Part shown: piece by piece, positions 1,629 to 20,969 of the stretch | How the letters are laid out: every line of letters begins with the position of its first letter | Position numbering within the stretch: the first letter of the stretch is position 1 | Assembly: GCA_026016245.1 (NCBI GenBank) | Contig: CP061211.1 | Span: forward strand, 270,679-294,678 | Direction: 5' to 3' | From: Candidatus Pacearchaeota archaeon | Lineage (GTDB): Archaea; Nanobdellota; Nanobdellia; Pacearchaeales; UBA284 | DNA: 24,000 nucleotides | Position numbers and translations under genes: made by a program | The notes under the pieces: generated by a model | Databases searched by the model: none | The model's input: only the letters and a program-made list of their open reading frames with translations | What the model was told of the DNA's origin: nothing

Positions 1629-1742
1629 TGGGCCCGATGGGATTTGAACCCATGACCACTGGCTCTCTTAGAGCTATTCAATCCAAGAATGGATTGCGGC
1701 CATATAAGACCAGTGCTCTAAACCAGGCTGAGCTACGGGCCC
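1629..1742 (-). tRNA. tRNA-Ile (anticodon UAU) with a 38-nt intron at the canonical 37/38 position
   Basis: The minus strand reads GGGCCCG TA GCTC AGCCTGGTTTA GAGC A CTGGT CTTATA [38-nt intron, 1702..1665] A GCCAG TGGTC ATGGG TTCAAAT CCCAT CGGGCCC A. The acceptor and body match the typical archaeal tRNA-Ile pattern. The anticodon TAT is at 1706-1704. A CTTA/TAAG helix flanked by 3-nt bulges (TAT and AGA) fits a bulge-helix-bulge splice motif. The intron contains the perfect hairpin CAATCCA-TTCT-TGGATTG. Confidence 0.8.
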
Positions 1743-2999: not shown

Positions 3000-4187
3000 A
3001 TGTTAATAGGAATAGTTGGAAAACCTAATGTCGGTAAAAGTACTTTTTTCAAAGCATCTACTCTGGCAGAAGTAGCAATAGCAAGTTATCCTTTTACAAC
3101 TATTAAAGCTAATGAAGGAGTTGGTTTTATAAAAGTAAAATGTCCAGAAATAGAAAAAAAATTGAAATGTAAGCCAAATCATGGTTTCTGTATCAGTGGA
3201 TGGCGTTTTATACCAATAAAGCTCCTTGATGTCGCAGGACTTGTTCCAGGAGCACATGCTGGAAAAGGTTTGGGCAATAAATTCCTTGATGATTTAAGGC
3301 AGGCTGATGCCCTTATACATGTTATTGATGTAAGTGGAACAACAAATGAGGAAGGAAAACTAACAAAAGATTATGATCCAAGTAAAGATATAAAATTTCT
3401 TCAAGAAGAGATAGATAAATGGTTTTATGGAATTATTGGAGAGGACTGGAAACTTCTTGTTAGAAAAATACAAGTAACAGATGTAAAACCTTTAGAAGAG
3501 CTTGCAAGAAAATTTTCAGGCCTGAAAATCACAGAAGAGATGATTAAAGAGGCAATAAAGAACTGTGCTCTCAAAGAAGAATTTGTTTCTTGGAATGATG
3601 AGCAGCTTTTTAGTTTTGTTCAAGAGCTTAGAAAGTTAAGCAAGCCAATGATAATAGCAGCTAACAAGTGTGATATGCCACAAGCAAAGGAAAATTTAAA
3701 AAAACTTCAAGAGGAATTTCCTGAAATGATTATAGTGTCATGTTCTGCAGAAAGTGAACTTGCATTGAGAGAGGCTGCCCGTGATAGTAAAATAGATTAT
3801 GTTCCAGGAAGTAATGAATTTGCAATGCATGATGATAAGTTGAGTGAGAAACAAAAAAAAGGATTAGAGTTTGTTAAAGATAAAATTTTGGAAATTTATA
3901 ATTCAACTGGAGTACAGAGATGTCTTAATAAAGCTATATTTTCTCTCCTAAAATATATTGTGGTTTATCCAGTAGAAAATGAAAATCATTTCACTGATGG
4001 AAAAAATAATGTCTTGCCAGATGCATTTCTTCTGCCTCCAAATTCTAGTGCTTTGGATCTTGCTTATGTAATCCATACCGATATAGGCAATGCTTTTATA
4101 GCAGCAATAGATGCCAGAACTCATAAAAGATTAGCAAGGGATTATGAGTTAAAAGAGGGAGATATTATAAGAATTATGACAAAGTAA
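3000..4187 (+). CDS. ychF: YchF/OLA1-type Obg-family GTPase/ATPase with a C-terminal TGS-like domain
   Basis: The ORF track begins at 2901, but the first 33 codons are hydrophobic junk overlapping the divergent MFS gene. The conserved N-terminus MLIGIVGKPNVGKSTFF (P-loop) starts at ATG 3000. Other motifs present are YPFTTI (G2), LLDVAGLVPGAH (G3), AANKCD (G4) and the C-terminal LKEGDIIRI (TGS-like). Confidence 0.85.
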   Translation: MLIGIVGKPNVGKSTFFKASTLAEVAIASYPFTTIKANEGVGFIKVKCPEIEKKLKCKPNHGFCISGWRFIPIKLLDVAGLVPGAHAGKGLGNKFLDDLRQADALIHVIDVSGTTNEEGKLTKDYDPSKDIKFLQEEIDKWFYGIIGEDWKLLVRKIQVTDVKPLEELARKFSGLKITEEMIKEAIKNCALKEEFVSWNDEQLFSFVQELRKLSKPMIIAANKCDMPQAKENLKKLQEEFPEMIIVSCSAESELALREAARDSKIDYVPGSNEFAMHDDKLSEKQKKGLEFVKDKILEIYNSTGVQRCLNKAIFSLLKYIVVYPVENENHFTDGKNNVLPDAFLLPPNSSALDLAYVIHTDIGNAFIAAIDARTHKRLARDYELKEGDIIRIMTK

Positions 4188-4344
4188 GAACACCTCTTTT
4201 TGTCCCCCCTTTTTCCCAGGACAAAAATTGCCTTTTTCTCGGCTAGCATACTTATTTATGTTCTGCTTGTATATAAATATAGTTAAGGGAAAATATAATA
4301 GACAGAATATAAGCAAAAGAAAAATAAGTTTTCTAAATTATATT

Positions 4345-7491: not shown

Positions 7492-8646
7492 TTAAAGGTT
7501 TGTAAAAGGGATATTATCTTGGAAAGCTATCTCTAGGAAAGGAAGCTCTTTATATGCTCTTTTTTTTGATGTGTGTATAATCTTAGCTAATTTTTCAGCA
7601 ATTTCCTTTCTTTTTGCTTGTTTTTGTTTTACTATCCATATTTTTAATATCCTTGAAGGTGGTTTGTATGATGTAAAATCTGTTTTTGCTTCTTTTTTTG
7701 AATTAGAGATACCTTCAGTGAGCAAAGCATTTATGTAAACAAGAAAACGCCAGTGTTGCCATCTTCTTATCCTGCCTCTAAAAACATCTGCCTTGCTTAA
7801 AGCATCATAAGCCTTTGCCAGCTCTTCTCCTCGATACTCTAAAGGCAGGTTTTCATCAATCCATAAAAAAATATCATTAGTATTTATATTCTGCACATTA
7901 TTAAAAGCCCTTAATGTTTTGTCTTTAGCTTTGAATATTTTTCTCAAGGCCTGGAAAATATTTTCATCTTTTTCCCTGGAACACAAGTCTAGCGCATCTT
8001 TTTTTGTTATCTCATTCTCTTTGCGTACAGAAGCCAAAATCTGCAAGTCAGTTATTGCTGCTCTGGCATCCCCTCTGGCCGTGATTGAAATAGTCTCAAA
8101 AGCATCACTGGAGATTTTTAACTTTTCTTTTTTAGATGTTTTTTGTAAAAGAGAAACAATACTTTCTTTATCTAGAGCTTTAAGTTCAATAAACTGCGTT
8201 TTTGAACGTAGGGGCCTTAGTTTAGCTTGCCAGGCATCATTTGCCACAAGAATTATAGGATAGCAGGTTCCTATTATTAATCTCATAAGTTCGCTTAGGC
8301 CTCCCCTGTCTCTAGTTCCAGTTATCCCATCAATTTCATCCACAAGAATTATCTTTCCCTTAGAAAATAAACTTTTTTGTTGAATGGCCTGCCCAATAAT
8401 TTCTTTTATTTGTTGTTTATTTCTAAAGTCAGAGGCATTTAATTCAATAATTTCATAATCAAATTCTGAAGCCAGGGCATAGGCTATAGAAGTTTTTCCA
8501 CTGCCAGCAGGACCATATAACAAGACAGCTTTTCTCCTTTGTATAGGAAAATTTTTTACAAAATCAAGAATTTTCTTTCTAGCTTCGACATTTCCAACTA
8601 TGTCTTTTAGTTTTCTAGGTCTATATTTTTCAGTCCAAGGAATCAT
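7492..8646 (-). CDS. rfcL: Replication factor C large subunit (short form, 384 aa)
   Basis: The N-terminus is MIPWTEKYRPRKLKDIVGN. Walker A is LYGPAGSGKTS and Walker B is IILVDEIDGI. The C-terminal helical domains are present. The start is 8 nt downstream of the rfcS stop. Confidence 0.9.
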   Translation of the reverse strand: MIPWTEKYRPRKLKDIVGNVEARKKILDFVKNFPIQRRKAVLLYGPAGSGKTSIAYALASEFDYEIIELNASDFRNKQQIKEIIGQAIQQKSLFSKGKIILVDEIDGITGTRDRGGLSELMRLIIGTCYPIILVANDAWQAKLRPLRSKTQFIELKALDKESIVSLLQKTSKKEKLKISSDAFETISITARGDARAAITDLQILASVRKENEITKKDALDLCSREKDENIFQALRKIFKAKDKTLRAFNNVQNINTNDIFLWIDENLPLEYRGEELAKAYDALSKADVFRGRIRRWQHWRFLVYINALLTEGISNSKKEAKTDFTSYKPPSRILKIWIVKQKQAKRKEIAEKLAKIIHTSKKRAYKELPFLEIAFQDNIPFTNL

Positions 8647-8654
8647 CTTTTATT

Positions 8655-9623
8655 TTATTTTTTAGCAAGAATGAATGAAGCAAGCAAAGCCTCAAGTTGA
8701 ACAAAATCATCGCTTCCCTCTACTAATCTAAATTCTATTTCCCCACACTTCTCTACAAGTTTTAATTTTTCTTCTTCTTTAATATCTAAATTCCATATCT
8801 CTTTCTGAATTGCTTTAACTATATCTAATCCTCCTAGACCTTGTTTTAACATAACATCAAGAAGCCTGTTTCTGGCATCAAGGAAAGAGCCTTTTAATGC
8901 CATTTCTATGATAGTTTTTATATCAGCTGGTTTAACCTCTGCAATAATCTCATATATTGTATTTTCATTTATGTTTTTTGATATACTTGCGCTGGCTTGA
9001 AGTATATTAATAACACGACGTAGATCGCCATTGCTCACATCATACAAGCCTTCTATAGCCTTATTATTGATCTTGAACTTCTCTTGCTTTGCGATTCTTT
9101 CAACAACTCTGGCCACATCTTTCTTGTCTAAAAGTTTGAATCTAAAAATACTGCACCTTGATTGTATAGGATCAATAATTTTACTACTGACATTACAACT
9201 GAGAATAAAACGACATGTTCCTGTAAACATTTCCATTGTTCTTCTTAATGCTTGTTGAGCTTCTTTTGTCAGAGCATCGCTTTCATCAAGAAAAATGATT
9301 TTGAAAGGCCCGCTAAAAGCCTTTGTTCTTGCAAAGCCCTTGACTTTTTGCCTTACTACATCTATTCCTCTTTCATCACTAGCATTCAACTCTAAAAAAT
9401 TTTCATGCCATGCCTTACCAAAGAACTTTTTTGCTATAATTAAAGCAAGAGTTGTCTTGCCACTTCCTGCAGGACCTGAAAAAAGTAAATGTGGCATATT
9501 CTTATTCTGGACAAAGGCTCTCCCCCTCTTAACAATCTCAGAATGGCCAAGAACCTCAGAAAAGTCTTTAGGACGGTATTTCTCAGTCCAAATTACACTA
9601 TCTTTAAATTCCTTAGCCTTCAT
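8655..9623 (-). CDS. rfcS: Replication factor C small subunit
   Basis: Motifs present are WTEKYRPKDFSEVLGH, Walker A FSGPAGSGKTT, Walker B IIFLDESDALT and the SRC motif IDPIQSRCSIFRF. The ORF track extends to 9806, but the conserved N-terminus starts at ATG 9623 (MKAKEFKDSVIWTEKYRP). That ATG lies 21 nt after a tttataaa TATA box. The longer version would also overlap the divergent gene and its promoter. Confidence 0.92.
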   Translation of the reverse strand: MKAKEFKDSVIWTEKYRPKDFSEVLGHSEIVKRGRAFVQNKNMPHLLFSGPAGSGKTTLALIIAKKFFGKAWHENFLELNASDERGIDVVRQKVKGFARTKAFSGPFKIIFLDESDALTKEAQQALRRTMEMFTGTCRFILSCNVSSKIIDPIQSRCSIFRFKLLDKKDVARVVERIAKQEKFKINNKAIEGLYDVSNGDLRRVINILQASASISKNINENTIYEIIAEVKPADIKTIIEMALKGSFLDARNRLLDVMLKQGLGGLDIVKAIQKEIWNLDIKEEEKLKLVEKCGEIEFRLVEGSDDFVQLEALLASFILAKK

Positions 9624-9731: not shown

Positions 9732-10358
9732 ATGGTAAAAATTAATTTTGAATTGAGAAATCCTAGTTATTATTACATTAGTCTTACCAATTATATTGAA
9801 AATCAAATTGATAAGGTTTTAACTAAATTAAGACAGCAGGATAAAATTAAGGGATTAGAAAAAGAAGTAGAAAAACAAAAAAAAGAGGCTGAGATTTCTT
9901 TGGACGTGGCTCTTAGAGAAGAACGAGAAAAAAGAAAAATTCTTCAAGAAAAGTTAATAGTGGAAGCACAATTAGATAAGTATTGTAATGGTGATTCTTA
10001 TATAAAAAAGATATTACCAAAATCAAGAAAAGAGATTAAAATATTATCAGAATCTATCCCCTCAGAAAGAGAAAAGCTCCCTCGCGTTAAAATTAGTTCA
10101 AAACATCCAAGAAGTGAGGAATATTTAAGATTTATCAAGAAATTAGAAGGAATAAAATATATTACAGAGATTGTAGATGGAGAGGCAAGAGAAGCAAAAA
10201 AATCTAGAATTAGAAGAATAACTGAAAAAGAAATTTTATTTATTCATGTTGATAATAATTGTCGTGGTTATCGTATTTCAGTTAAGACTACTGCTGAGAA
10301 TATTAGACAGCAGCATCATATTGTAGCTTTAATAGAAGAATATTTTATTAGACCCTAG
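9732..10358 (+). CDS. Hypothetical protein (charged coiled-coil N-terminal half, unknown C-terminal domain)
   Basis: 208-aa ORF with a canonical TATA box at leaderless spacing. The N-terminal half is Lys/Glu-rich and helical (KGLEKEVEKQKKEAEISLDVALREEREKRKILQEKL). The C-terminal part (EILFIHVDNNCRGYRISVKTTAENIRQQHHIVALIEEYF) matched no family I could recognise. Its 3' end overlaps the convergent gene by 11 nt. Confidence 0.5.
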   Translation: MVKINFELRNPSYYYISLTNYIENQIDKVLTKLRQQDKIKGLEKEVEKQKKEAEISLDVALREEREKRKILQEKLIVEAQLDKYCNGDSYIKKILPKSRKEIKILSESIPSEREKLPRVKISSKHPRSEEYLRFIKKLEGIKYITEIVDGEAREAKKSRIRRITEKEILFIHVDNNCRGYRISVKTTAENIRQQHHIVALIEEYFIRP

Positions 10359-11214
10359 AAATAACAAATCTTGATCCTGCAAAAGCTGATATTACTGCTG
10401 TTATCAAAAGATTTCCTACTTGAGTTTTAAAAATAGGTTCAGATAATGGCTGGCCTGCTCTGTCTGCAAATTTCTGAACAGCTGCTTTTATCTCATCCTC
10501 GTTCAACGTGATTTTTGTTTCTTGTATTGTTCCTTCTCTTGTTATCTTAATAGAAAGATTAGCACCATCACATTGTATTAGAGAAACACCATCATCTTTA
10601 ACAAGAGAATTTAATTTTCCTAAATCTATTCCTGTGATTGCTTCATATTTTTCTTCTGGAGGGGGAGGAGGAACAGGAGCTGGAGGTGCTAGGGCAGGAG
10701 CTTCTGGGACTTCTGGAGCTTCGGGTGTAGGAAACTGCACTGTTGGTGGTGCCATAGCCTCTTCTTCAGGAGGCCTAGCAGGAGATCTTGGTTCAGGCAG
10801 AGGATATTCTTTTTCTGGTTTTGGTGCTTTTGGCAATATAGGCAAGGGTCTCTTATAAACTGGGGCCACTTCTGTTGGGGGAGGTGTTGGTTTTGGCGCT
10901 GCTTCAACTATTTCTTCCATTTTCTCAGGCTCTACTTTTTCTTCTTCTAATGTAAGAGGTTTTAATTTTTCTCTCATTTTCCTGCCTTTCATTATGCCTA
11001 GTCTTAATTTTTTCTCAACTACTGCAACTTCCTTTTCTGCTTTCTCCTTTTTCCCTATTTTTTTCTCTTCTATAATTTGTTTTTCTTTAGCAATAAGAAG
11101 CTGTTTCATAAAAGAGCTAAGAAATTCTCTTTCTCTAGCACTTTTTGCTTTCTCGGCAGCAGTTTCTACAGCTTTTATTTCAGATTTTATAGTTTTTGCT
11201 TTCTTTCTAGCCAT
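10348..11214 (-). CDS. Hypothetical protein with an N-terminal coiled coil, a Pro-rich linker, and a C-terminal domain resembling the N-domain of PilB/TadA/FlaI-type secretion ATPases (no ATPase core)
   Basis: 288-aa ORF. Residues 1-100 are Lys/Glu coiled coil. Residues ~105-187 are Pro-rich (PKPTPPPTEVAP...APPAPVPPPPPEE). Residues ~192-288 read ITGIDLGKLNSLVKDDGVSLIQCDGANLSIKITREGTIQETKITLNEDEIKAAVQKFADRAGQPLSEPIFKTQVGNLLITAVISAFAGSRFVISRV. This parallels the pre-Walker-A N-domain of CpaF/TadA/VirB11-class ATPases ([93 protein letters not shown]). The ORF stops where the ATPase core would begin. Confidence 0.6.
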   Translation of the reverse strand: MARKKAKTIKSEIKAVETAAEKAKSAREREFLSSFMKQLLIAKEKQIIEEKKIGKKEKAEKEVAVVEKKLRLGIMKGRKMREKLKPLTLEEEKVEPEKMEEIVEAAPKPTPPPTEVAPVYKRPLPILPKAPKPEKEYPLPEPRSPARPPEEEAMAPPTVQFPTPEAPEVPEAPALAPPAPVPPPPPEEKYEAITGIDLGKLNSLVKDDGVSLIQCDGANLSIKITREGTIQETKITLNEDEIKAAVQKFADRAGQPLSEPIFKTQVGNLLITAVISAFAGSRFVISRV

Positions 11215-11660: not shown

Positions 11661-11683
11661 TCTTTAACATTTTTATCTTGTAT

Positions 11684-11767
11684 GCGGGAGTGTCGGAGTG
11701 GTCAAACGAGCAGGACTTAAGATCCTGTGGGTTAGTCCCTGCGCAGGTTCGAATCCTGTCTCCCGCA
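11684..11767 (+). tRNA. tRNA-Leu (anticodon UAA), class II with a long variable arm
   Basis: The sequence reads GCGGGAG TG TCGGAGTGGTCAAACGAG CAGGA CTTAAGA TCCTG TGGGTTAGTCCCTGC GCAGG TTCGAAT CCTGT CTCCCGC A. The anticodon TAA is at 11718-11720. It has a long variable arm and a perfect 7-bp acceptor stem. Confidence 0.9.
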
Positions 11768-11776
11768 TCAGCAAGC

Positions 11777-11784
11777 TTTAAAAG
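11777..11784 (+). promoter_or_regulatory. TATA box (tttaaaag) for the SRP RNA, inside the tRNA-Leu 3' trailer
   Basis: There are 21 nt between the element and the predicted SRP RNA 5' end (11806). Confidence 0.5.
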
Positions 11785-11805
11785 TTCTTTCTGCCTCTTT
11801 TTAGT

Positions 11806-12069
11806 GGGTAGGTTAGGCTGGCACGCTAGCCCTGTGCCGTTTGTAAATGGGCTTTATGACAAGCTGCAAGAGGAGGCGTTATATGCTTGTTGGGGAGTCC
11901 TGACTTGGACGTTGAGGTCTTGTCCTGCTTGATCTTGCCCTAGCAAACCGGGTCAGTTCCGGAAGGAGGCAGCCCTAAGTTAGAGTTAAGATGCTTGTAG
12001 GGTTGCAAGGCTGAGGAAGAGTTAGGGTAGCTTTCTAGTAAGTATAGAAGCAAATCCTCGAACCTGCCC
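11806..12069 (+). ncRNA. Signal recognition particle RNA (archaeal 7S-type SRP RNA)
   Basis: GC-rich, non-coding island. ACCGGGTCAGTTCCGGAAGGAGGCAGCCCTAAG matches the universally conserved SRP helix-8 core, with a GGAA tetraloop flanked by the GGUCAG / GGCAGCC asymmetric and symmetric loops (E. coli 4.5S: ACCAGGUCAGGUCCGGAAGGAAGCAGCCAAGG). The 5' GGGTAGGTT (11806-11814) pairs over 9 bp with the 3' AACCTGCCC (12061-12069), closing the molecule. The 5' region GGTTAGGCTGGCACGCTAGCC resembles the archaeal Alu-domain start. A TTTT run follows. The ends are approximate, within a few nt. Confidence 0.85.
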
Positions 12070-12077
12070 TTTTAAAA

Positions 12078-12797
12078 TTATTTTAAAACTCCTCTAACAT
12101 AACCAAGATTCTCTTTTTTTAAACCAAGTGCTTCTTTTAACCCCTTATATTCAAAATTAAACATTTTTTTGATAAATTCTGGAAAAAGATCATTTGATAT
12201 CCTCACTTTATATTCTGTATAATGAGATAAATAAATATGTGCTGTTGTTTGTCCAATTGCATATTTAGAAGCAATTTCTAAACTTTTTCTTGCCTTTTCT
12301 TTTCCAAACTCTTTCAGTCTAGAATTTATGAAGGGAGTTTGAATAATTCTTTCGTGTAAATCCTTTTTAAAATTTAAATCTTTTTTATAGAATTCTTCCA
12401 TGACGTTATATAATTTAATAAAATCTGAATCTTCATATAGTTCTGAAATAAAACAAACATCAAATTCACAGCCTCCCCTTTTTATTTTTCTTAAAGTCCT
12501 TTCCATTTCTCCTTTTAATCTTCTTAATTTCTTTTCTGCTTCTTCAGAACATAAATCTTGAAATGCCACTATATTATGAACATAAATTTTATCCCATGGA
12601 ATAAGCAATATTTTTTTTGCATACTGAAGCAGATTTATGGTTATATCTCTTATATTTTTTCTTGAATAGTATCTTGAACCAAAACTGATGCCAGCAAAAC
12701 AGCTCAAGGTTTTTGGCTCATATAAAAATTTTTTGCCAAGTCCATATGTTTCTAATATCTCTAACTTTCTAATGGGTTTTATATTTTTAATCATCAT
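12078..12797 (-). CDS. Cyclodipeptide synthase (CDPS)-like protein; tRNA-dependent peptide-bond-forming enzyme family, divergent
   Basis: 239-aa ORF, the same size as AlbC. By-eye alignment to remembered AlbC/YvmC sequences gives several matches. SCFAGISFGSRYYSRKN aligns with ALIGISAGNSYFSQKN (GIS with the acyl-accepting Ser). ILLIPWD aligns with VVYVDTH. SEEAEKKLRRLKGEMERTL aligns with AQEAERSVKRTLKDLRRRL. FISELYEDSDFIKLYNVMEEFYKKDLNFKKD aligns with SLSELQETPEYRAVRERTDRAFEEDAEFATA. KYAIGQ aligns with NYVLAE, so the Tyr is conserved but the catalytic Glu is replaced by Gln. The start overlaps the radical SAM stop by 4 nt (ATGA). Confidence 0.5.
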   Translation of the reverse strand: MMIKNIKPIRKLEILETYGLGKKFLYEPKTLSCFAGISFGSRYYSRKNIRDITINLLQYAKKILLIPWDKIYVHNIVAFQDLCSEEAEKKLRRLKGEMERTLRKIKRGGCEFDVCFISELYEDSDFIKLYNVMEEFYKKDLNFKKDLHERIIQTPFINSRLKEFGKEKARKSLEIASKYAIGQTTAHIYLSHYTEYKVRISNDLFPEFIKKMFNFEYKGLKEALGLKKENLGYVRGVLK

Positions 12798-14182
12798 TTT
12801 AATTTTTTATATACCAAGGATAAAAATTCATCAAAAATTTTTTTATACCTTGGATGTTTTTTGATGAATTTAGAAATTCTCTTTTTATATTCTTCAGAGA
12901 AATAAAAAGTCCTTGACATCTCTCCTTGTATTTCTTTTAATTCGTTACCGCTAAAACAGGGATGGTTGAAAACTAAGTGATTTACATCATACTTTGACTT
13001 ATCCTTTTCAATTAAAAATCCTTTTTCTCTTATTATTTTGTGATCCAATGTTCCTGGAAAAGGAGTATAAATTGGAAAGGAAGCTATATGAATATTATAA
13101 TAAGGCAGTCTATTCATGGTTTCTTTTATCTGCTCTCTAGTTTCCTTAGGCCATCCAATAATTAAGAAAGTTTCACTAAGAATTCCTATTTCTGACGAAT
13201 AGTTCAAAATTTCTTGTATTTTATTTGAAGGACATAATTTTTTTGTTTCTTTCTTGATCCATGGGGGTTGTAGTATATTCTCTAATCCCCAACTTATCTT
13301 TACGCAACCCGCTTGCTTCATCTTTTTTAATAAACCATAACTTATGTTTCTAAACCCAGAAAGAATAGTCCAATAAATATTGAGATTTTCTTGGATTAAA
13401 CTATCACACAATTCTTCTACTTTTTTAGGATTTAGAGTCATATTTAAATCTGTAAAGAAGATATAATTTATTCCAAAATTTTCTTTTAGATTTTTAAGTT
13501 GCCTTGTTATTGTCTCTGGTTTTCTATAAATGATTTTTCTACCTAAGACATTTGGGGAAGCACAAAAACTACAATTAAAAGTGCATCCCCTAGAGTATTC
13601 TAAAAAAGCTGTTTTTCTCTTTTTTGTTGGTGGATAAGACAAATAAGTAGATTTTTGTTTGAAGATCTTCTCTGTTCTAAATGGGTCTGGTAATTTATCT
13701 AAATTTTCTATCCTTTGCCTTCTTGGATTAACAACAATCCCTTCCCCTAAAAAAGCAATACCTTTTATCTTTTCATAATCTTTATTTTTTTCAATAGATG
13801 TTAATAATTCTCTGAATGTTTCTTCACCCTCCCCAAGAATAGCAAAATCAAACCCTTCTTTGATAATAGAAGGCTCTGCTGAGGGATGGTAGCCTCCAAC
13901 GATAGATATTAGATTGGATTTTATTTTTTTTAATTCTTTATTAAATTTTAGGTAAAAATCAATTCTATTTGTTGTACTTGAATATAAAATAATATTTGGA
14001 TTAAAAGCAATTATTTCTTCCATATCTTTTGTGTCTTTTGGAATGAATAAATCAACTTCATGTCCTTGACCTTGGGCTACAGCTAAAATACATTCTAGAC
14101 CTAAAGGCTCATCTAAACCCCTAATTACTTCTTCAATTGTTTCTATATCCTCATGAATTTTGTAAACTCCAGCAACTTTCAT
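12794..14182 (-). CDS. B12-binding-domain radical SAM enzyme (class B radical SAM)
   Basis: 462-aa ORF. The N-terminal Rossmann-like, cobalamin-binding-type domain includes LGLECILAVAQGQGHEVDLF...SIVGGYHPS...ILGEGEETF. The radical SAM cluster motif is YSRGCTFNCSFCASP (CxxxCxxC). The rest is TIM-barrel-like (FFTDLNMT, ISWGLEN). Confidence 0.85.
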   Translation of the reverse strand: MKVAGVYKIHEDIETIEEVIRGLDEPLGLECILAVAQGQGHEVDLFIPKDTKDMEEIIAFNPNIILYSSTTNRIDFYLKFNKELKKIKSNLISIVGGYHPSAEPSIIKEGFDFAILGEGEETFRELLTSIEKNKDYEKIKGIAFLGEGIVVNPRRQRIENLDKLPDPFRTEKIFKQKSTYLSYPPTKKRKTAFLEYSRGCTFNCSFCASPNVLGRKIIYRKPETITRQLKNLKENFGINYIFFTDLNMTLNPKKVEELCDSLIQENLNIYWTILSGFRNISYGLLKKMKQAGCVKISWGLENILQPPWIKKETKKLCPSNKIQEILNYSSEIGILSETFLIIGWPKETREQIKETMNRLPYYNIHIASFPIYTPFPGTLDHKIIREKGFLIEKDKSKYDVNHLVFNHPCFSGNELKEIQGEMSRTFYFSEEYKKRISKFIKKHPRYKKIFDEFLSLVYKKLK

Positions 14183-14222
14183 TTTATCTACTTCTTAGTG
14201 ATATTTGTTTTTATTTTATTGC

Positions 14223-14238
14223 TCTCCAATATTGGAGA
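14223..14238. promoter_or_regulatory. Perfect 16-bp palindrome TCTCCAATATTGGAGA between divergent promoters; candidate TrmB-family operator
   Basis: The sequence is exactly self-complementary across 14223-14238. It lies 4 nt upstream of the trmB-like TATA box (14243-14250). On its other side is the A/T-rich putative TATA of the radical SAM operon (about 14207-14220). Confidence 0.5.
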
Positions 14239-14242
14239 AAAA

Positions 14243-14250
14243 TTTAAAAA
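14243..14250 (+). promoter_or_regulatory. TATA box (tttaaaaa) for the TrmB-family regulator gene
   Basis: There are 21 nt between the element and ATG 14272. Confidence 0.6.
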
Positions 14251-14271
14251 CTAGGAGAAGATTAAAGAAAT

Positions 14272-15033
14272 ATGGAAGAATTTATTAAAGCCCTAATGAA
14301 AACAGGACTAACAAAAGCTGAATCAAAAGTTTATTTTTACTTAGTTGGTGTTTCTCAGTCAACTAGTGGAGATGTCATAAAAAATACGGGACTGCAAAGC
14401 TCAACAGTATATCATGTGGTCAACACCTTAATAGATAAGGGGCTTGTTTCTTACACATTAAAAAATAACATAAAATACTTTCAAGTGACTGGTTTAAGTA
14501 ATTTGATAAATTATTTAGATGGTCTAAAAGAAGAGATAAAAAGCTCTAAGAAAAAATTGAATAGATTATTTGCTGAAATTAAAAAATCTGAAAAAAAGGA
14601 AATTTACGAAGTAAAGGTCTTTGAAGGATGGAATGGAGTATGGAATGCATTTGAAGAATGTTTAGAAAAAACTAATAAAAAAGAACCTATTTTGATATAT
14701 ACCCTTAGCAAATATGTGGGGGCTGATCCAAATATGGCGAAGGCTTTAATAAATAGAATAAGAAATAAGAGATTAAAAAGAAAACTTTACGAGAAAATTA
14801 TTATTAATGAATCTGAAAGAAAAACCCTTGGCAGAGACCATGAAAAATTGCCTTATACTCAAATAAAATATTTGCCTGAAAATTTATCAAATCCAGCTAT
14901 AGTCCACATTTATAGTGATAGGGTTTTAATTGTGATTTCATCTAAAAAACCTATTGCAACTATGATAAAAGATAGGTTTGTTGTTGAGAGTTTTAGAAAT
15001 AACTTTAAATTATTATGGAAAATAGCTAAATAA
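14272..15033 (+). CDS. TrmB-family transcriptional regulator
   Basis: 253-aa ORF. The N-terminal winged HTH is typical of the TrmB family (LMKTGLTKAESKVYFYLVGVSQSTSGDVIKNTGLQSSTVYHVVNTLIDKGLVSY). A coiled-coil linker follows (LDGLKEEIKSSKKKLNRLFAEIKK), then a C-terminal effector-type domain. Confidence 0.8.
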   Translation: MEEFIKALMKTGLTKAESKVYFYLVGVSQSTSGDVIKNTGLQSSTVYHVVNTLIDKGLVSYTLKNNIKYFQVTGLSNLINYLDGLKEEIKSSKKKLNRLFAEIKKSEKKEIYEVKVFEGWNGVWNAFEECLEKTNKKEPILIYTLSKYVGADPNMAKALINRIRNKRLKRKLYEKIIINESERKTLGRDHEKLPYTQIKYLPENLSNPAIVHIYSDRVLIVISSKKPIATMIKDRFVVESFRNNFKLLWKIAK

Positions 15034-15109: not shown

Positions 15110-15655
15110 ATGGATAAAAAGCGAAGTAAGATGAATAAAAAAGCTCAATTTTTCATTATTTTTGCAGTAATTCTTGGGATAATAATTCTAAGCCTGGCAA
15201 CAATATTCAATACAATAATAAAGACTGGAAGAGAAGAAACAGCTCCTAAGAAATTTGCTCTGATGTGTAAAAATTACAAAGAGGAGGTTTTCAGAGTCAG
15301 TGAACATGCAATAAACACAAGCAACAAGAGTGGGGAAGCTGGCTTGATTCTTGATTTCACTAAAGAATTTATGAGTTATGCAGAAAAAACTGATCCTAAT
15401 TTTGGCCTTGTTTATGTTTATGGTAATAATAATTATGTAAATATTTTGGATGCAACAGATTATGAAATTGTTGTTGAGGATTATGATAATTGGCAGTCAT
15501 TAAATGGTTATAGATTTATAGAGATTATTGGACCAGTAGATAAAATAATTTTATCAAGTGAGAAAGTTAATAAACAATATGAAATTGACAATAATGAAAA
15601 GTTTTGGTTTATAGCCTTGACAGAAAAAGATGGTGAAGAATATGTTTGTGAATAA
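15110..15655 (+). CDS. Class III signal-peptide (archaeal type IV pilin-like) protein, paralog 1
   Basis: 181-aa ORF. The N-terminus MDKKRSKMNKKA|QFFIIFAVILGIIILSLATIF has a basic stretch, a small residue, then a hydrophobic helix, giving a prepilin-peptidase-type site. An alternative start is at 15131. It has two Cys and a C-terminal EKDGEEYVCE motif shared with the downstream paralogs. Confidence 0.65.
   Translation: MDKKRSKMNKKAQFFIIFAVILGIIILSLATIFNTIIKTGREETAPKKFALMCKNYKEEVFRVSEHAINTSNKSGEAGLILDFTKEFMSYAEKTDPNFGLVYVYGNNNYVNILDATDYEIVVEDYDNWQSLNGYRFIEIIGPVDKIILSSEKVNKQYEIDNNEKFWFIALTEKDGEEYVCE
15635..15652 (+). repeat. 18-nt exact repeat, copy 1 (gaagaatatgtttgtgaa), spanning the pilin 1 C-terminus and the pilin 2 start codon
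   Basis: Identical to 16600-16617. It encodes EEYVCE in the frame of paralog 1 and contains the ATG (15642) of paralog 2. Confidence 0.9.
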
Positions 15656-16163
15656 AAAAGAAAATAAGAAAGGCATTAGTATCCTTGTTTCTTATGTTCT
15701 GCTCATCACCTTAGCTATAGCTCTTGCAGCAGCCACATATACATTCTTGAGAACCTATGCAGAAAAACCACTCCCAGAAGAAGGCTGTCCTGAAGGAACT
15801 AACATAGTTATTGAAAATTATACTTGTGAAGATGATGGAATCAATATAACAATAAAAAATCGTGGTTTGTTTAATGTTACAGGAGTTTTTATTAAAATTG
15901 GTAATGAAACAGACAGTGAATTTTTATATGATTTTTTAGAGATAAGTCCTGACTGTACAGGCAAACCAAGATGTGTTATTTGTGACAGAGATCCTTGTTT
16001 TGCCCCTAATGAAGAATTTTATCCAGAAAGTCCTTTTAGTTATTCATCTTTTAATAAAATAACAAGAATAGTGGTTATTCCATATAGGGCAGGAGAGCCT
16101 TATGCCACTCTATGCAAGAATGCTATCGCTAGTCTAGATATCCCAGAGGGAGCATGTGAATAA
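15642..16163 (+). CDS. Archaeal type IV pilin N-terminal domain protein, paralog 2 (Cys-rich)
   Basis: Start set at ATG 15642 (MFVNKKENKKG|ISILVSYVLLITLAIALAAA), which overlaps the paralog 1 stop region by 14 nt. It has eight Cys and four N-x-S/T sequons (NYT, NIT, NVT, NET). The C-terminus is IPEGACE. Confidence 0.75.
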   Translation: MFVNKKENKKGISILVSYVLLITLAIALAAATYTFLRTYAEKPLPEEGCPEGTNIVIENYTCEDDGINITIKNRGLFNVTGVFIKIGNETDSEFLYDFLEISPDCTGKPRCVICDRDPCFAPNEEFYPESPFSYSSFNKITRIVVIPYRAGEPYATLCKNAIASLDIPEGACE

Positions 16164-16203
16164 TTTGGATAAAATATTTAAATCCAAAAATCAACTAAGT
16201 AAT

Positions 16204-16644
16204 ATGAGGAAAAAAGATAAAAAAGGAATTTCTCCAGTTGTTGCAACTGTCCTGCTTATAGTTGTCGCAATAGCACTTTTTTTGCTTATTTTTATGTGGC
16301 TTCGTGGTTTTCAAAAGGAAGCTATAACAAAAGATGGCACACCAATAGAATTAGTATGTAATGAAATCAATTTTGATATTTCTTATAATAGTGTTATAGA
16401 AACATTACAAGTAGTTAATATGGGGGATTATCCTATTCATAGAGCAGAGATTTATCGTGTGACTGAAACAAGTACAACTAAATTGGGGGATATTTCTGGA
16501 ATAACTCCTGGTACAACTGGAATAATAAGTGGAATAGCATGTATGGAACAAATAAAAGTTATTCCTGTTTTGCTTGGAATAACTAAATCTGGAGCTCAAG
16601 AAGAATATGTTTGTGAAAACCAAGCACAAACCATTTCATGTTAA
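16204..16644 (+). CDS. Archaeal type IV pilin N-terminal domain protein, paralog 3
   Basis: Start set at ATG 16204. MRKKDKKG|ISPVVATVLLIVVAIALFLLIF is the classical archaeal pilin N-terminus (KKGISPVIATVLLI type). The track's 16156 start is a GTG extension. It has four Cys, and the C-terminus is QEEYVCENQAQTISC. Confidence 0.85.
   Translation: MRKKDKKGISPVVATVLLIVVAIALFLLIFMWLRGFQKEAITKDGTPIELVCNEINFDISYNSVIETLQVVNMGDYPIHRAEIYRVTETSTTKLGDISGITPGTTGIISGIACMEQIKVIPVLLGITKSGAQEEYVCENQAQTISC
16600..16617 (+). repeat. 18-nt exact repeat, copy 2 (gaagaatatgtttgtgaa), in the pilin 3 C-terminus
   Basis: Identical to 15635-15652. It encodes EEYVCE in paralog 3. Here the embedded ATG (16607) opens only a 16-codon relic ORF. 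Confidence 0.9.
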
Positions 16645-16669
16645 AAAATTATACTAAAAGAGGTAAAAA

Positions 16670-17152
16670 ATGAAAAATAAAAAAGGAATTGAACCTGTGA
16701 TTGCAACAGTTTTGCTTATAGTGATCACAATTGTTGTTGTGGCTTTAGTTATTGCTTTTGTAGTGCCTTTTGTACAAGAACAAATGAAGGGAGCAGAATT
16801 GTGTTATGGGGCTAGAGTTGAAATCAAAGAAGCTTGTTTCAATTACACAGATAGTCATTTAGTAATAAGGATTGGTCGTGGAGCAGAAGATTTTGAACTT
16901 GTAGGTATTGTAGTACAAGCCTCAGTAGCAGAAGTAACCAAAACCCATATTCTGAAAGAAGATACAGATTATGGAGATGGGCTACCAAAAGTTTTAGAGG
17001 AGATCCAATATAAAATACCTTTAACTGCATTTGATATTGCAGACAATATAAATATAACTTCAGTTGCAATTTCTCCAGTAGTTAAGAGTGGAGTTACAGA
17101 AAAAACTTGTGAGATTACTTCACAGATGACTATCAGTATATGTCCTGAGTAA
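16670..17152 (+). CDS. Archaeal type IV pilin N-terminal domain protein, paralog 4
   Basis: The N-terminus is MKNKKG|IEPVIATVLLIVITIVVVALVIAF. A GAGGT Shine-Dalgarno sequence lies upstream. It has four Cys, and the C-terminus is TEKTCEITSQMTISICPE. Confidence 0.85.
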   Translation: MKNKKGIEPVIATVLLIVITIVVVALVIAFVVPFVQEQMKGAELCYGARVEIKEACFNYTDSHLVIRIGRGAEDFELVGIVVQASVAEVTKTHILKEDTDYGDGLPKVLEEIQYKIPLTAFDIADNINITSVAISPVVKSGVTEKTCEITSQMTISICPE

Positions 17153-17159
17153 ATAGAAA

Positions 17160-17672
17160 ATGAAAAAACAAGCAGTAGTTTGGGTTTCTACAGTTCTTTA
17201 TATTTTAATTAGTCTGGCTATCCTTGGTATTGTGTTAGCAGCTGTACAGCCAAGGATTAAAGCAGCAAGAGATAAGGCAGCTATAGACCAGACAGTAAAC
17301 ATGTTGAATGAGCTTGATCAAAAGATAATTGAAGTGGATAGTTCAGCAGAAGGAAATGTCAGATCAATAAGCTTGCAGCTGAAAAGAGGTATTCTTATAA
17401 TTGATAAGGATGAAGATGAAATAAAATGGACTCTTGAAGACTCCTCCTATAAATATAGTGAGCCAGGAACAACAATCATCATTGGTAGAATCAAAGCTCT
17501 CACAGAAGAAGTCCCAGGAGGTTTTAATGTTACTTTAACTTTGGATTATCAAAATAATCTAAACATAACTTCTAGCTTGGTATTGCAGCCTGCTGAAATT
17601 CCATACAAAGTTTTTATGAAAAATGAGGGTTTGTATGAAAAACTTAATCAGATTAAAATTTATTCTACTTAA
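17160..17672 (+). CDS. Class III signal-peptide (pilin-like) protein, paralog 5, Cys-free
   Basis: The N-terminus is MKKQA|VVWVSTVLYILISLAILGIVLAAV, followed by a beta-rich domain with NVT and NIT sequons. The start is 7 nt after the paralog 4 stop. Confidence 0.65.
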   Translation: MKKQAVVWVSTVLYILISLAILGIVLAAVQPRIKAARDKAAIDQTVNMLNELDQKIIEVDSSAEGNVRSISLQLKRGILIIDKDEDEIKWTLEDSSYKYSEPGTTIIIGRIKALTEEVPGGFNVTLTLDYQNNLNITSSLVLQPAEIPYKVFMKNEGLYEKLNQIKIYST

Positions 17673-17710: not shown

Positions 17711-19015
17711 ATGCTTGATCCAAAGTTTATTCGAGAAAACTCAAAAGAGGTAAAAGAAGCCATAAAAAACAGGCAGCTTGATCCTAAACTTGTTGATGCT
17801 TTTATTCAAAAAGATAAAAAATATAGAGAGCTAAAACAGAAAGTTGATAATTTAAGATATCAGCGTAATAAGATTTCTGAGGATATTAATCGGCTAAAGA
17901 AGTTAAAAAAAGAGAGTGAAGTAAGGAAAAAAATAAAGGAAGCCAAAGAAATTCCTAATAAAATCAAGAAGATAGAGGATGAAATAAGAAGATTCGAACC
18001 AAATATAAGAAATTTACTTCTTACAATTCCTAATATGCCAGCAAAAGATGTTCCTATAGGTAAAAGTGAGAAAGATAACAAAATAATCAAAAAATATAGT
18101 AAGATACAAAAATTCAAATTTAAAGTTAAAGGCCATGAAGAACTTGCCACAAATTTTGATTTGCTTGATATTGAAAGAGCTGCAAAAGTTTCAGGAGCCC
18201 GCTTTTATTACCTGAAAAATGAGGCTGTGATTCTTGACCACGCTTTACAAAGATTTGCCCTAGATTTTATGAAAAAGAAAGGCTATCAACTTATAGAGCC
18301 TCCCTTTATGTTAAAAAAAAGACCTTATGAAGGGGTTGCTCATCTAGAAACTTTCGGGGAAATGCTGTATAAAATTCAAGATGAAGATCTTTATTTAATA
18401 GCAACAGCAGAACATCCTCTTGCTGTTTATCACATGAATGAAGTTTTAAATAATAAAAACCTTCCAATAAAGTTTGCTGGGATTAGTCCTTGTTTTAGAA
18501 AAGAAGCAGGAAGTCATGGTAGAGATACTAAAGGAATTTTCAGAGTTCATCAATTTAACAAAGTAGAGCAATTTATATTTTGCAAGCCAGAAGAGAGCAA
18601 AAGATTACATAAAGAACTTTTGAAAAATATGGAAGAAATTTATAAGGCATTAAAAATTCCTTATAGAATTGTTGAAATGTGTACAAGTGAGTTGGGAAAA
18701 TTAGCTGCAAAACAATATGATATAGAAGCCTGGTTCCCTGCTCAACAAAATTATAGGGAGATCACTTCTTGTTCTAACTGTACAGATTATCAAGCAAGAA
18801 GATTAAATATAAGATTTTTTGATGAAAACGGAGAGAGAAAATTTGTTCATACACTAAATGCAACAGCCATACCAACACAAAGAACAATAGCTACAATCCT
18901 AGAAAATTATCAGCAGAAAGATGGCAGCATTAAGATTCCTAATGTTCTACAAAAATATTGTGGATTTAAAATAATAAAAGGTAAATCAAAAAAGAAAATA
19001 AAGAAAAAGAAGTGA
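17711..19015 (+). CDS. serS: Seryl-tRNA synthetase (bacterial/common type)
   Basis: 434-aa ORF. The start MLDPKFIRENSKEVKEAIKNR is followed by a long N-terminal coiled-coil arm. Class II motif 2 is FRKEAGSHGRDTKGIFRVHQFNKVEQF and motif 3 is VHTLNATAIPTQRTIATILENYQ. The C-terminus carries a Lys-rich tail. Confidence 0.95.
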   Translation: MLDPKFIRENSKEVKEAIKNRQLDPKLVDAFIQKDKKYRELKQKVDNLRYQRNKISEDINRLKKLKKESEVRKKIKEAKEIPNKIKKIEDEIRRFEPNIRNLLLTIPNMPAKDVPIGKSEKDNKIIKKYSKIQKFKFKVKGHEELATNFDLLDIERAAKVSGARFYYLKNEAVILDHALQRFALDFMKKKGYQLIEPPFMLKKRPYEGVAHLETFGEMLYKIQDEDLYLIATAEHPLAVYHMNEVLNNKNLPIKFAGISPCFRKEAGSHGRDTKGIFRVHQFNKVEQFIFCKPEESKRLHKELLKNMEEIYKALKIPYRIVEMCTSELGKLAAKQYDIEAWFPAQQNYREITSCSNCTDYQARRLNIRFFDENGERKFVHTLNATAIPTQRTIATILENYQQKDGSIKIPNVLQKYCGFKIIKGKSKKKIKKKK

Positions 19016-19553: not shown

Positions 19554-20969
19554 ATGGCAAATAAGAATCCAAGGCTAAAAGAATTTAATGATTTATGTAG
19601 GAATGTAGCACAGTATTATGCTAAGAAAGATCTTTACAAATATTTAGATCTTTCCTTAGATTTAATTGGTTTTAAAGATAAAAAAAAGCCAGAACTTCTT
19701 GAACAGCTTCTTAAGGATAAAGAGATTAAAAAAGAAGCAAAAATCTGGGGGACAGTTCATGAAGCATATGAATTAGGCTGTGATATTTTTGAAATTGAGG
19801 TAAAAGAATACAAGGAATCAAAAGAAGAAAAAGTAATAGAAAAAGAGATTCCTAAACCAAAAATTTCAGTTCCTGCTCTTGTTAAGACAAAATCCTTAAT
19901 ACCAGCAGTTCTAAGATCAGTAATAAAAAAACCAAAGCCAATAATATATGCTAAAAAACCTAAGCAACCTAAACCAAAACCTATTGTTGAAAAAGTAGAG
20001 CTGAAAAAAGAATACATAAAGCCTGAGCCTATAAAAGCAGAACCAATAAAAGAAAGAAAAAAGACTAAGGTAAATCCTTGGAATATTGGCATTCCTATTG
20101 GTATTGCTGCCACATCTTGCCTTATGGCATTCTTGTATTTAAGCAGCCAGATAAAAAATATAGAAGCTAATATTTATAATAAGAAACTTGAGTGTTTAGA
20201 TACAATAACTTCTCAGTTAGATAATTTTAATATAGGCAGATCAGTATATCATGAATTAACTCATGATTCCTTAATTGAAGGAGAAAGTAAGGTTTCTTTA
20301 GCAAAACTTGTGAGTTATGATAAAGGAGATGAAAATATAAAAGAGAAACTTGAATCAATTCAGCTAAATCTTGATCCTGGAAATCCTCTTGGTGAAGATG
20401 GATATATAATAACAAGTGGATATTTTGCTGTAAGGCACACTGGAGGTCCTGGCAGCACTAAAACAAGACTTCATAATGCTCTTGATATGGTCGCAAAAAA
20501 AGGAAAAGTAAAACATGAACTTTATCATATAGGTTGTGGGGGTAATGTAACAAGAGCAGGATATAATAGAAATTTATGGCAATATGGGAATCTAGTAGAA
20601 GTGTTAACTGATGATGGATATTATATGAGGTTTGGCCATCTTTCAAAAATTTCAGTAAAAGTTGGGGAAAGAGTAGAGGTTGGAGAGCTTATAGGTTTTA
20701 TGGGAAATACAGGAAGATGTTCAATAAGCGAGAAAACAGGAAAAAAAGCAATACATCTACATCTAGAAACTTTCTACAGAGGAAAAAGTGGTGAAAAAAT
20801 ATTATTCAATCCAATAAAATTTCTCAGAAAGGGTCATTTTGGGAAAGCTAAGAATGGGATTAATAAAGTGAAACAATTTATCACACAATCTTTTCCATCT
20901 CCTCCAAGCCAAGAAAAATCTTCTTATGATGCTGATTTTATCATGTTCCGAGAAATAGAATATGATTAG
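19554..20969 (+). CDS. Membrane-anchored M23 (LytM/lysostaphin-type) metallopeptidase
   Basis: 471-aa ORF. The N-terminal ~175 aa are soluble, with a Lys/Pro-rich stretch (KKPKPIIYAKKPKQPKPKPIVEK). A single TM helix follows (NIGIPIGIAATSCLMAFLYL). The C-terminal M23 domain reads SGYFAVRHTGGPGSTKTRLHNALDM (HxxxD: H307, D311), YGNLVEVLTDDGYYMRFGHLS, VGELIGFMGNTG and AIHLHLE (HxH: H401, H403). Confidence 0.85.
   Translation: MANKNPRLKEFNDLCRNVAQYYAKKDLYKYLDLSLDLIGFKDKKKPELLEQLLKDKEIKKEAKIWGTVHEAYELGCDIFEIEVKEYKESKEEKVIEKEIPKPKISVPALVKTKSLIPAVLRSVIKKPKPIIYAKKPKQPKPKPIVEKVELKKEYIKPEPIKAEPIKERKKTKVNPWNIGIPIGIAATSCLMAFLYLSSQIKNIEANIYNKKLECLDTITSQLDNFNIGRSVYHELTHDSLIEGESKVSLAKLVSYDKGDENIKEKLESIQLNLDPGNPLGEDGYIITSGYFAVRHTGGPGSTKTRLHNALDMVAKKGKVKHELYHIGCGGNVTRAGYNRNLWQYGNLVEVLTDDGYYMRFGHLSKISVKVGERVEVGELIGFMGNTGRCSISEKTGKKAIHLHLETFYRGKSGEKILFNPIKFLRKGHFGKAKNGINKVKQFITQSFPSPPSQEKSSYDADFIMFREIEYD

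Follow-up and report, generated by a model that had tools for sequence, protein, structure and literature searches.

A divergent cyclodipeptide synthase-superfamily protein paired with a cobalamin-domain radical SAM enzyme in DPANN archaea

The locus and its two encoded enzymes

The window analysed here is a stretch of 24,000 nucleotides from the 710-kb contig CP061211.1, part of a metagenome-assembled genome (MAG) of Candidatus Pacearchaeota, a DPANN archaeon. It contains a two-gene module of about 2.1 kb, comprising a gene for a predicted class B (cobalamin-domain) radical S-adenosylmethionine (SAM) enzyme of 462 residues and a gene for a 239-residue protein. The latter is annotated as hypothetical by NCBI and, judged from sequence profiles and a structure model, is a member of the cyclodipeptide synthase (CDPS) superfamily. 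A TrmB-family regulator is transcribed divergently from the module. The features are listed below, with their basis in brackets.

12078-12797, minus strand: divergent CDPS-superfamily protein, 239 aa, of the 'Q-clade' (open reading frame (ORF), hidden Markov models (HMMs), family profile, AlphaFold2 (AF2) model, Foldseek)
12794-14182, minus strand: class B radical SAM enzyme, 462 aa (Pfam PF02310 and PF04055)
12794-12797, minus strand: ATGA overlap of the radical SAM stop codon TGA with the CDPS-like start codon ATG (read in the sequence)
14183-14271, no strand: divergent intergenic region of 89 bp that holds the operator (sequence; alignment with the intergenic region of locus L008, described below)
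14222-14238, minus strand: palindromic operator TCTCCAATATTGGAGAG, between the TrmB-like gene and the operon (conserved motif)
14272-15033, plus strand: TrmB-family winged-helix regulator, 253 aa, divergent (Pfam TrmB; orthologues)

At the junction of the two genes the letters read AAA TTA AAA TGA in one frame and ATG ATG ATT in the other, which gives a 4-nt overlap (ATGA). This overlap predicts that the radical SAM and CDPS-like genes are translationally coupled, as the preliminary description of this DNA, made by eye, had proposed and as can be read directly in the sequence.

Matches of the 239-residue protein to the curated CDPS models are significant yet sub-threshold: the Pfam CDPS family PF16715 gives E=4.6e-5 and 23.7 bits, under its gathering cut-off (GA) of 27, and TIGR04539 gives E=2e-8 and 34.1 bits, under a cut-off of 45. 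A newer Pfam release assigns PF16715.12 to the protein, according to a precomputed database listing. With this protein as phmmer query, the best matches in the PDB were AlbC (E=0.012) and the P. gingivalis CDPS. An exhaustive HMMER search of 1.84 billion representatives retrieved 27 relatives, the closest with 47% identity; it was fuller than a word-indexed homologue search, in which the protein retrieved itself alone and the family profile retrieved 12 proteins. Scans for loci gave two in metagenomes, both already known, and three in genomes. The family profile matched every solved CDPS, 9gun with E=3.6e-35, 5ocd with 2.9e-20 and the weakest with 6e-8, and a profile of the protein's own four-member clade matched solved CDPSs with E=3.5e-11.

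An AF2 model computed from the single sequence was unusable (pLDDT 39.5) and was rebuilt from a 35-sequence alignment, reaching a pLDDT of 95.7 and a pTM of 0.91. When this model was compared with the PDB by Foldseek, the top 43 matches were all CDPSs (E values down to 1.3e-9, query TM-scores 0.57-0.78), followed by tyrosyl-tRNA synthetases (TyrRS) with a TM-score of about 0.5. On the strength of the family and clade profiles and of the AF2 model with its Foldseek matches, we regard the homology of the protein to CDPSs and its predicted fold as secure. Its assignment to the CDPS family in the preliminary description is thus borne out by profile and by fold; significant HMM and structure matches exist, while the Pfam and NCBIfam scores stay under their cut-offs.

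Residue equivalences with AlbC were taken from the alignment to solved CDPSs, including that of the clade profile onto 9gun; direct alignment of the protein to AlbC is unreliable past residue ~150. They are as follows.

AlbC Gly35: Gly36 in the 239-residue protein, retained
AlbC Ser37, the nucleophile: Ser38, in the loop G36-I-S38, retained
AlbC Asn40: Ser41, changed
AlbC Tyr178, which anchors the aminoacyl amino group: Tyr179, retained
AlbC Glu182, amino-group anchor and general base: Gln183, lost
AlbC Tyr202-His/Pro203: Ser201-Asn202, lost

Tyr179 does not vary within the clade and corresponds in the alignment to the Tyr of 9gun, and Ser201 is aligned to the Tyr of the 9gun Tyr-Pro pair. Neither the NYH nor the XYP signature (positions 40, 202 and 203) is present, and Ser41, Ser201 and Asn202 are found instead. 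The SEL motif lies at residue ~119, and the basic helix alpha4 (residues 84-107) carries 10 Lys or Arg residues, versus 9 in AlbC and 6-10 among clade members; in AlbC, the basic patch of alpha4 is needed for activity and has been proposed to bind tRNA (PMC3105412). The GIS serine, the basic helix, the SEL segment and the Tyr and Gln of the dyad, all picked out earlier by eye, are confirmed by the alignment. Moreover, the Glu-to-Gln change noticed at that time is real and fixed in the clade; the second lost residue, Tyr202 replaced by Ser201, had been overlooked.

Within the clade 32 positions are invariant, active-site residues included, among them Tyr179, Gln183 and Gly36 of the amino-acid pocket. 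The nucleophile is kept in all relatives as a Ser, except for a Cys in P0122 that is identical in three independent assemblies; the S37C variant of AlbC is active, like the wild type (PMC3105412). Gln occupies the Glu182 position in all five members of the Q-clade (the window, P0122, P0124, L001 and L022) and in no Glu-type relative. The truncated P0129 also shows a Gln there, probably through misalignment. Outside the Q-clade the position is Glu, or Asp in one case, with two truncated sequences being uninformative. Ser at the Tyr202 position is found in six of six members of the radical-SAM-associated group, that is, the five radical-SAM-linked lineages and P0124 of locus L010.

The roles of these residues are known from AlbC. 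Its E182Q variant makes no cyclodipeptide yet forms some Phe-enzyme, and Gln155 of TyrRS superimposes on Glu182 (PMC3105412). Glu182 has been proposed as the base that serves dipeptidyl-enzyme formation, and Tyr202, the relay for cyclisation, has been called 'strictly conserved' among active CDPSs (PMC5935735). Read by alignment, the residues of the first half-reaction, aminoacyl transfer to Ser, are kept, and those for peptide bond formation and ring closure are gone. Since the protein falls short of the curated score, has neither Glu182 nor Tyr202 and lacks the NYH/XYP signature, we file it as a predicted non-canonical variant of the CDPS superfamily rather than as a CDPS.

The 462-residue partner was expected to be a class B radical SAM enzyme, and its domain composition agrees: an N-terminal B12-binding domain (PF02310, residues ~25-127) scores 60.4 bits against a GA of 32.1, and a Radical_SAM core (PF04055, residues ~195-358) scores 70 bits against 29.5. 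The cluster motif is C200-x3-C204-x2-C207, a triad invariant in 11 orthologues. We could place the enzyme in no characterised class B subfamily, as all 25 of the listed NCBIfam matches are far under their cut-offs, the best being BchE (149.7 bits vs 481) and HpnJ (128 vs 578). The nearest solved structures by sequence are AprD4, TokK and CysS.

Conservation of the pair and exchange of its partner

Radical SAM and CDPS-like homologues were traced to their contigs, and the ORFs of these contigs were scored with the profiles. The pair was found in the following arrangements.

Window: radical SAM then CDPS-like gene, ATGA overlap, TrmB-like gene divergent
L008/L009/L014: TrmB-like gene divergent; CDPS-like then radical SAM gene, ATGA overlap
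L001-L003/L015/L016 (Woesearchaeota MAG): CDPS-like gene, radical SAM gene, then a gene for a 342-aa membrane protein
L022: TrmB-like gene divergent; CDPS-like gene, radical SAM gene, then the same membrane protein as in the L001 lineage
L023/L024: radical SAM gene then a gene for a 188-aa CDPS-like protein

Adjacency of the two genes is therefore seen in five DPANN lineages and in both orders, with ATGA overlaps in two of them, while the CDPS-like proteins share 23-49% identity across these lineages. The CDPS-like, radical SAM and TrmB-like proteins of the window each share 45-49% identity with their L008 counterparts. No radical SAM neighbour was found for the three Glu-type relatives examined (P0149, P0153 and P0155). 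The preliminary description had made its proposal depend on finding the pair together elsewhere, and this is what is observed, with varied gene order and a conserved TrmB operator.

The regulator contains a TrmB helix-turn-helix domain (PF01978, 45.6 bits vs a GA of 25.6, residues 8-69), and its C-terminal 180 residues have no Pfam match; the TrmB and TrmBL1 equivalog models score 28-47 bits, against cut-offs of 600-650. Orthologues that share 49-52% identity with it are found beside the pair in L008 and L022. As noted at the outset, the regulator and the operon diverge from either side of a perfect palindrome, the 16-bp TCTCCAATATTGGAGA at 14223-14238. A single copy of the motif TYTCCARNRTTGGAGAG is present in the window and in every locus with a TrmB-like gene (L008/L009/L014 and L022). 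Each time it lies between that gene and the operon, on the strand of the operon. None was seen in the other 20 loci or in any of 100 shuffled versions of the window. TrmB gene and motif are kept together in three of the five pair-bearing lineages. Because the operator is conserved whichever gene comes first in the operon, the regulator appears to be tied to the pair. A/T-rich, TATA-like stretches lie on both sides of the operator in the 89-bp spacer and may mark divergent promoters.

Two lineages carry, after the radical SAM gene, the 342-aa protein listed above (L001 6736-7764, L016 6427-7464, L022 3156-3341). With a transmembrane segment at its N-terminus, it matches no Pfam or NCBIfam family, and its first 62 residues are 74% identical between the two lineages. 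This protein may be a third component, for example an exporter or a membrane acceptor.

Genes related to sugar nucleotides were also seen. P0124 (L010 1-2512) is flanked by RmlD-like and RmlA-like (nucleoside triphosphate (NTP)-transferase) genes, and in L008 an NTP-transferase and an NAD-epimerase/dehydratase gene flank the pair (3321-4307, 8161-8994). The module may be tied to nucleotide-sugar metabolism. We keep this as a lead only: the NTP-transferases of L010 and L008 are 32% identical, and in the window, L001 and L022 no genes of these kinds lie close to the pair.

On other Pacearchaeota contigs the radical SAM orthologues have a different partner. Those of L004/L017, L006 and L018, at 44-50% identity, and the more distant one of L011 are coupled, through a 4-nt overlap, to a UbiE/PmtA-like class I methyltransferase of 213-217 aa.

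L004 5360-7428: radical SAM and methyltransferase module
L006 5363-7419: radical SAM and methyltransferase module
L018 4363-6419: radical SAM and methyltransferase module
L011 5351-7407: radical SAM and methyltransferase module

The divergent regulator at these loci is of AsnC/Lrp type, and no CDPS-like gene is found near the radical SAM genes of the L004/L017, L006, L018 and L011 loci. The best matches of the methyltransferase are PmtA and UbiE, which are small-molecule or lipid enzymes, all far under cut-off. In a neighbour-joining tree the radical SAM orthogroup has 100% support, the CDPS-linked enzyme of L008 branches first (99%), and the methyltransferase-linked enzymes group together, with 100% support, as a single clade inside the CDPS-linked set. 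Thus the radical SAM enzyme appears, from these sequences, to be the constant element and its partner to be exchangeable. Since the orthologues pair with a methyltransferase and have no adjacent CDPS-like gene, we infer that the substrate of the radical enzyme is not a scaffold made by a CDPS; more probably, both types of partner decorate the same kind of molecule. The radical SAM/methyltransferase pair is itself an uncharacterised module.

The rest of the window is ordinary archaeal housekeeping, with replication factor C subunits, seryl-tRNA synthetase (SerRS), Elp3, type IV pilin-like genes, signal recognition particle (SRP) RNA and tRNAs. Immediately downstream of the CDPS-like gene, and convergent with it, are an archaeal SRP RNA (11806-12069, plus strand, Rfam 106.6 bits) and tRNA-Leu(TAA) (11683-11769, plus strand); since they occupy that stretch, an 84-aa ORF at 11678-11932 is judged spurious. 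An RNA element or artefact beneath the ORFs of the module was considered and rejected, the two Rfam features lying downstream with no overlap with the 239-aa gene. A further tRNA, spanning 114 nt (1629-1742, minus strand), is called by Rfam and unreported by ARAGORN, and may be an archaeal tRNA with an intron. At several loci, CDPS-like genes have aminoacyl-tRNA synthetase genes no more than a few kb away: SerRS in the window (17711-19015, plus strand) and in L021 (6023-7345), and a class Ib synthetase and threonyl-tRNA synthetase in L001 (9921-12674). This proximity may be a coincidence of compact genomes.

Adjoining the TrmB-like gene on its downstream side are five tandem small genes (160-181 aa, 15110-17672, plus strand), whose products begin with a class III signal or a hydrophobic segment, for example KKGISPVVATVLLIVVAIAL; one of them matches the archaeal type IV Pilin_N model with 24.3 bits, slightly under the cut-off of 25.2. 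A 288-aa protein (10348-11214, minus strand) has a long Pro/Glu/Ala-rich low-complexity centre and is without a family match. Finally, a 471-aa protein (19554-20969, plus strand) carries a C-terminal peptidase M23 domain (55.6 bits). This fold, that of peptidoglycan endopeptidases of bacterial type, occurs here in a DPANN archaeon and might be relevant to interactions with bacteria. A reading of the region as anti-phage defence was rejected: PADLOC gave no match for the CDPS-like protein and weak generic matches for the other proteins scanned.

A proposed function and its alternatives

From the homology, fold, residue pattern, conserved pairing and conserved operator described above, the reading we favour, and hold tentatively, is that of a TrmB-regulated module. 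In it a CDPS-derived single-aminoacyl transferase, working through a Ser/Cys acyl-enzyme, would be joined by a cobalamin radical SAM enzyme, probably a C-methyltransferase, with the tethered amino acid or the acceptor as its substrate. The 239-residue protein would still bind aminoacyl-tRNA via its basic helix, and the aminoacyl group would pass onto Ser38, while Tyr179 and Gln183 would hold its alpha-amino group in the manner of Tyr151 and Gln155 of archaeal TyrRS. The base that in CDPSs serves the attack on a second aminoacyl-tRNA (Glu182) and the proton relay for ring closure (Tyr202) are lost, and it is because of this loss that a single-aminoacyl transferase or carrier is expected. The cobalamin radical SAM enzyme would work on the same molecule, its most probable reaction being the methylation of an unactivated carbon. 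Its target may be the aminoacyl ester still tethered to the enzyme. We give a slight preference to an acceptor that is aminoacylated afterwards by the CDPS-like protein, since orthologous radical enzymes have a small-molecule methyltransferase as their partner. The TrmB-like protein would bind the conserved palindrome and control both divergent promoters.

Several points weigh against this proposal. The protein stays under the curated CDPS cut-offs, so that retention of tRNA binding is presumed. The radical-SAM-linked protein of L023 (188 aa) retains Glu and has Phe at the Tyr178 position; thus Gln is not obligatory for partnership with the radical SAM enzyme. Monophyly of the Q-clade has a low bootstrap support of 66%, and the Q-clade gene of L010 (P0124) lies on a 2.5-kb contig without a radical SAM gene next to it. 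Loss of Tyr202 is not specific to the clade either, since the wider family from uncultured lineages (P0123-P0155 alignments) mostly shows Asp-Pro where XYP-type CDPSs have Tyr202-Pro203, with Tyr in 3 of ~35. By alignment this is a large set of Pfam-CDPS proteins without a residue called strictly conserved in active CDPSs, and these proteins may close the ring in a different way. The argument from partner exchange is weakened because radical SAM enzymes that are 44-50% identical can act on different substrates, and the genomes with the methyltransferase-linked genes, such as those of JBAZNI010000001 and MFWN01000044, could encode a CDPS-like gene elsewhere. The proposal also presupposes that a Pacearchaeote can obtain cobalamin.

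We also consider it possible, if doubtful, that the replacements of Glu182 by Gln and of Tyr202 by Ser have made the CDPS fold a single-turnover aminoacyl carrier or transferase, in complex with the cobalamin radical SAM enzyme, and that the pair follows one of two routes. The amino acid could be modified while esterified to Ser38, or thio-esterified to Cys, which would amount to a protein-tethered, tRNA-fed supply of a C-methylated or rearranged amino acid. Alternatively, the pair could aminoacylate and methylate a scavenged host molecule, for example a lipid or a sugar. If true, either route would bring a new class of reaction to the CDPS fold and give Pacearchaeota/Woesearchaeota their first defined specialised metabolism.

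It is unlikely that the 239-residue protein is an active, atypical CDPS whose diketopiperazine is C-methylated or cross-linked by the B12 radical SAM enzyme. The CDPS fold and homology speak for such an activity, as do the retained nucleophile, Tyr179 and basic helix, and many relatives without Tyr202 are widespread, so that an alternative route of cyclisation is conceivable. CDPS genes typically cluster with those of tailoring enzymes, and a 2014 review, according to which archaea had no known CDPS at that time, listed 'RSAM' among genes near putative CDPS genes. Against this, Glu182 is a Gln and the AlbC E182Q variant is inactive (PMC3105412), the strictly conserved cyclisation relay Tyr202 is missing (PMC5935735), and the protein lacks both signatures and scores under the curated CDPS thresholds. 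Furthermore, radical SAM orthologues of the same orthogroup are paired with a methyltransferase and have no adjacent CDPS-like gene. Tailoring of a cyclodipeptide, the first of two outcomes put forward in the preliminary description, is thus disfavoured by the missing Glu182 and Tyr202 and by the methyltransferase-linked orthologues; its second outcome, arrest at the aminoacyl-enzyme stage, would fit the aligned residue pattern better. The signalling or antagonism towards a host that was also suggested there would be conjectural.

Less probable still is that the CDPS-like protein is a disabled binder of the tRNA acceptor arm, which would present tRNA or aminoacyl-tRNA to a radical SAM enzyme that modifies the RNA or the esterified amino acid, the class I methyltransferase filling the partner role in sister lineages. 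Such an adaptor could have lost two catalytic residues and kept the basic tRNA-binding helix, the methyltransferase has a fold widely used in RNA methylation, and the surroundings are of the housekeeping kind, with tRNA, SRP RNA, SerRS and Elp3. However, a conserved Ser/Cys nucleophile and an invariant Tyr179, Gln183 and Gly36 are unexpected for a mere RNA-binding adaptor, and the module has a divergent regulator of its own with a conserved operator, which points to conditional expression and is unusual for tRNA modification. In addition, the best matches of the methyltransferase, far under cut-off, are small-molecule or lipid enzymes, and we know of no class B radical SAM enzyme that modifies RNA.

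That the genes are chance neighbours and the CDPS resemblance a decaying or non-functional remnant is hardly credible: the window protein does score under the curated HMM cut-offs and the family is very rare (27 matches among 1.84 billion representatives), but adjacency in five lineages at 23-49% CDPS-like identity, in both orders and with two ATGA overlaps, the 32 clade-invariant positions with their active-site residues, a confident, well-folded AF2 model and the conserved regulator and operator effectively refute it, such identities excluding a single recently transferred element. The remaining probability goes to an explanation that we have not considered.

Comparison with known systems

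DPANN genomes are usually described as stripped of biosynthesis, and a conserved, regulated and cofactor-expensive module in such archaea points to a function important for their lifestyle. The pairing is real and conserved and, to judge from the searchable literature, previously undescribed: we found no characterised pathway and no description of a CDPS with a B12 radical SAM partner or of CDPS-like genes in DPANN archaea, which upholds the novelty claimed for it in the preliminary description. As the CDPS relative has lost two residues needed for making cyclic dipeptides, the unit probably performs an undescribed tRNA-dependent reaction, which would extend the CDPS fold to a new chemistry and to a new class of partner. 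Being a small module of two genes, it is directly testable by heterologous expression, and Q183 and S201 may bear on how CDPS chemistry is gated.

CDPSs are the textbook diverters of aminoacyl-tRNAs into natural products. To our knowledge, all characterised members make diketopiperazines and share Ser37, Tyr178, Glu182 and Tyr202. The 239-residue protein has in common with AlbC, YvmC, Rv2275 and XYP-type enzymes such as 9gun the fold (TM-score up to 0.78), the GxS nucleophile loop, the Tyr178 equivalent, the basic alpha4 helix and a size of ~240 aa. It differs from them in having Gln for Glu182 and Ser for Tyr202, in lacking NYH or XYP, in its scores under the HMM cut-offs and in its host, a DPANN archaeon. 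Whereas the partners of CDPSs are P450s, flavin oxidases, 2-oxoglutarate oxygenases and methyl- or prenyltransferases, the partner here is a cobalamin radical SAM enzyme.

Class Ic TyrRS, as exemplified by the M. jannaschii enzyme, has an alpha-amino-binding pair, Tyr151 and Gln155, that matches Tyr179 and Gln183 (PMC3105412). The 239-residue protein is much smaller, is without an anticodon-binding domain and carries a CDPS-type Ser nucleophile and basic helix. By sequence and by predicted fold it groups with CDPSs rather than with TyrRS, which are its second-best structural neighbours.

MprF, Fem/MurM and PacB transfer one amino acid from aminoacyl-tRNA onto a non-ribosomal acceptor, and we know of no CDPS-fold enzyme that acts as a single-aminoacyl transferase. 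The function proposed here would be alike in kind to that of these enzymes and of SbzA-type proteins, SbzA being an aminoacyl-tRNA-dependent transferase cited in PMC9437257; their folds (GNAT/Fem-type or full aminoacyl-tRNA synthetase homologues) are unrelated to that of the 239-residue protein, and the analogy is functional only.

The 462-residue enzyme, for its part, has the same B12-binding domain and CxxxCxxC core as BchE, HpnJ, TokK, CysS, the Fom3/GenK-type C-methyltransferases and AprD4. It is set apart from these characterised class B enzymes by an orthogroup that is confined to DPANN-type contigs and whose partners are interchangeable, being either the CDPS-like protein or the UbiE/PmtA-like methyltransferase.

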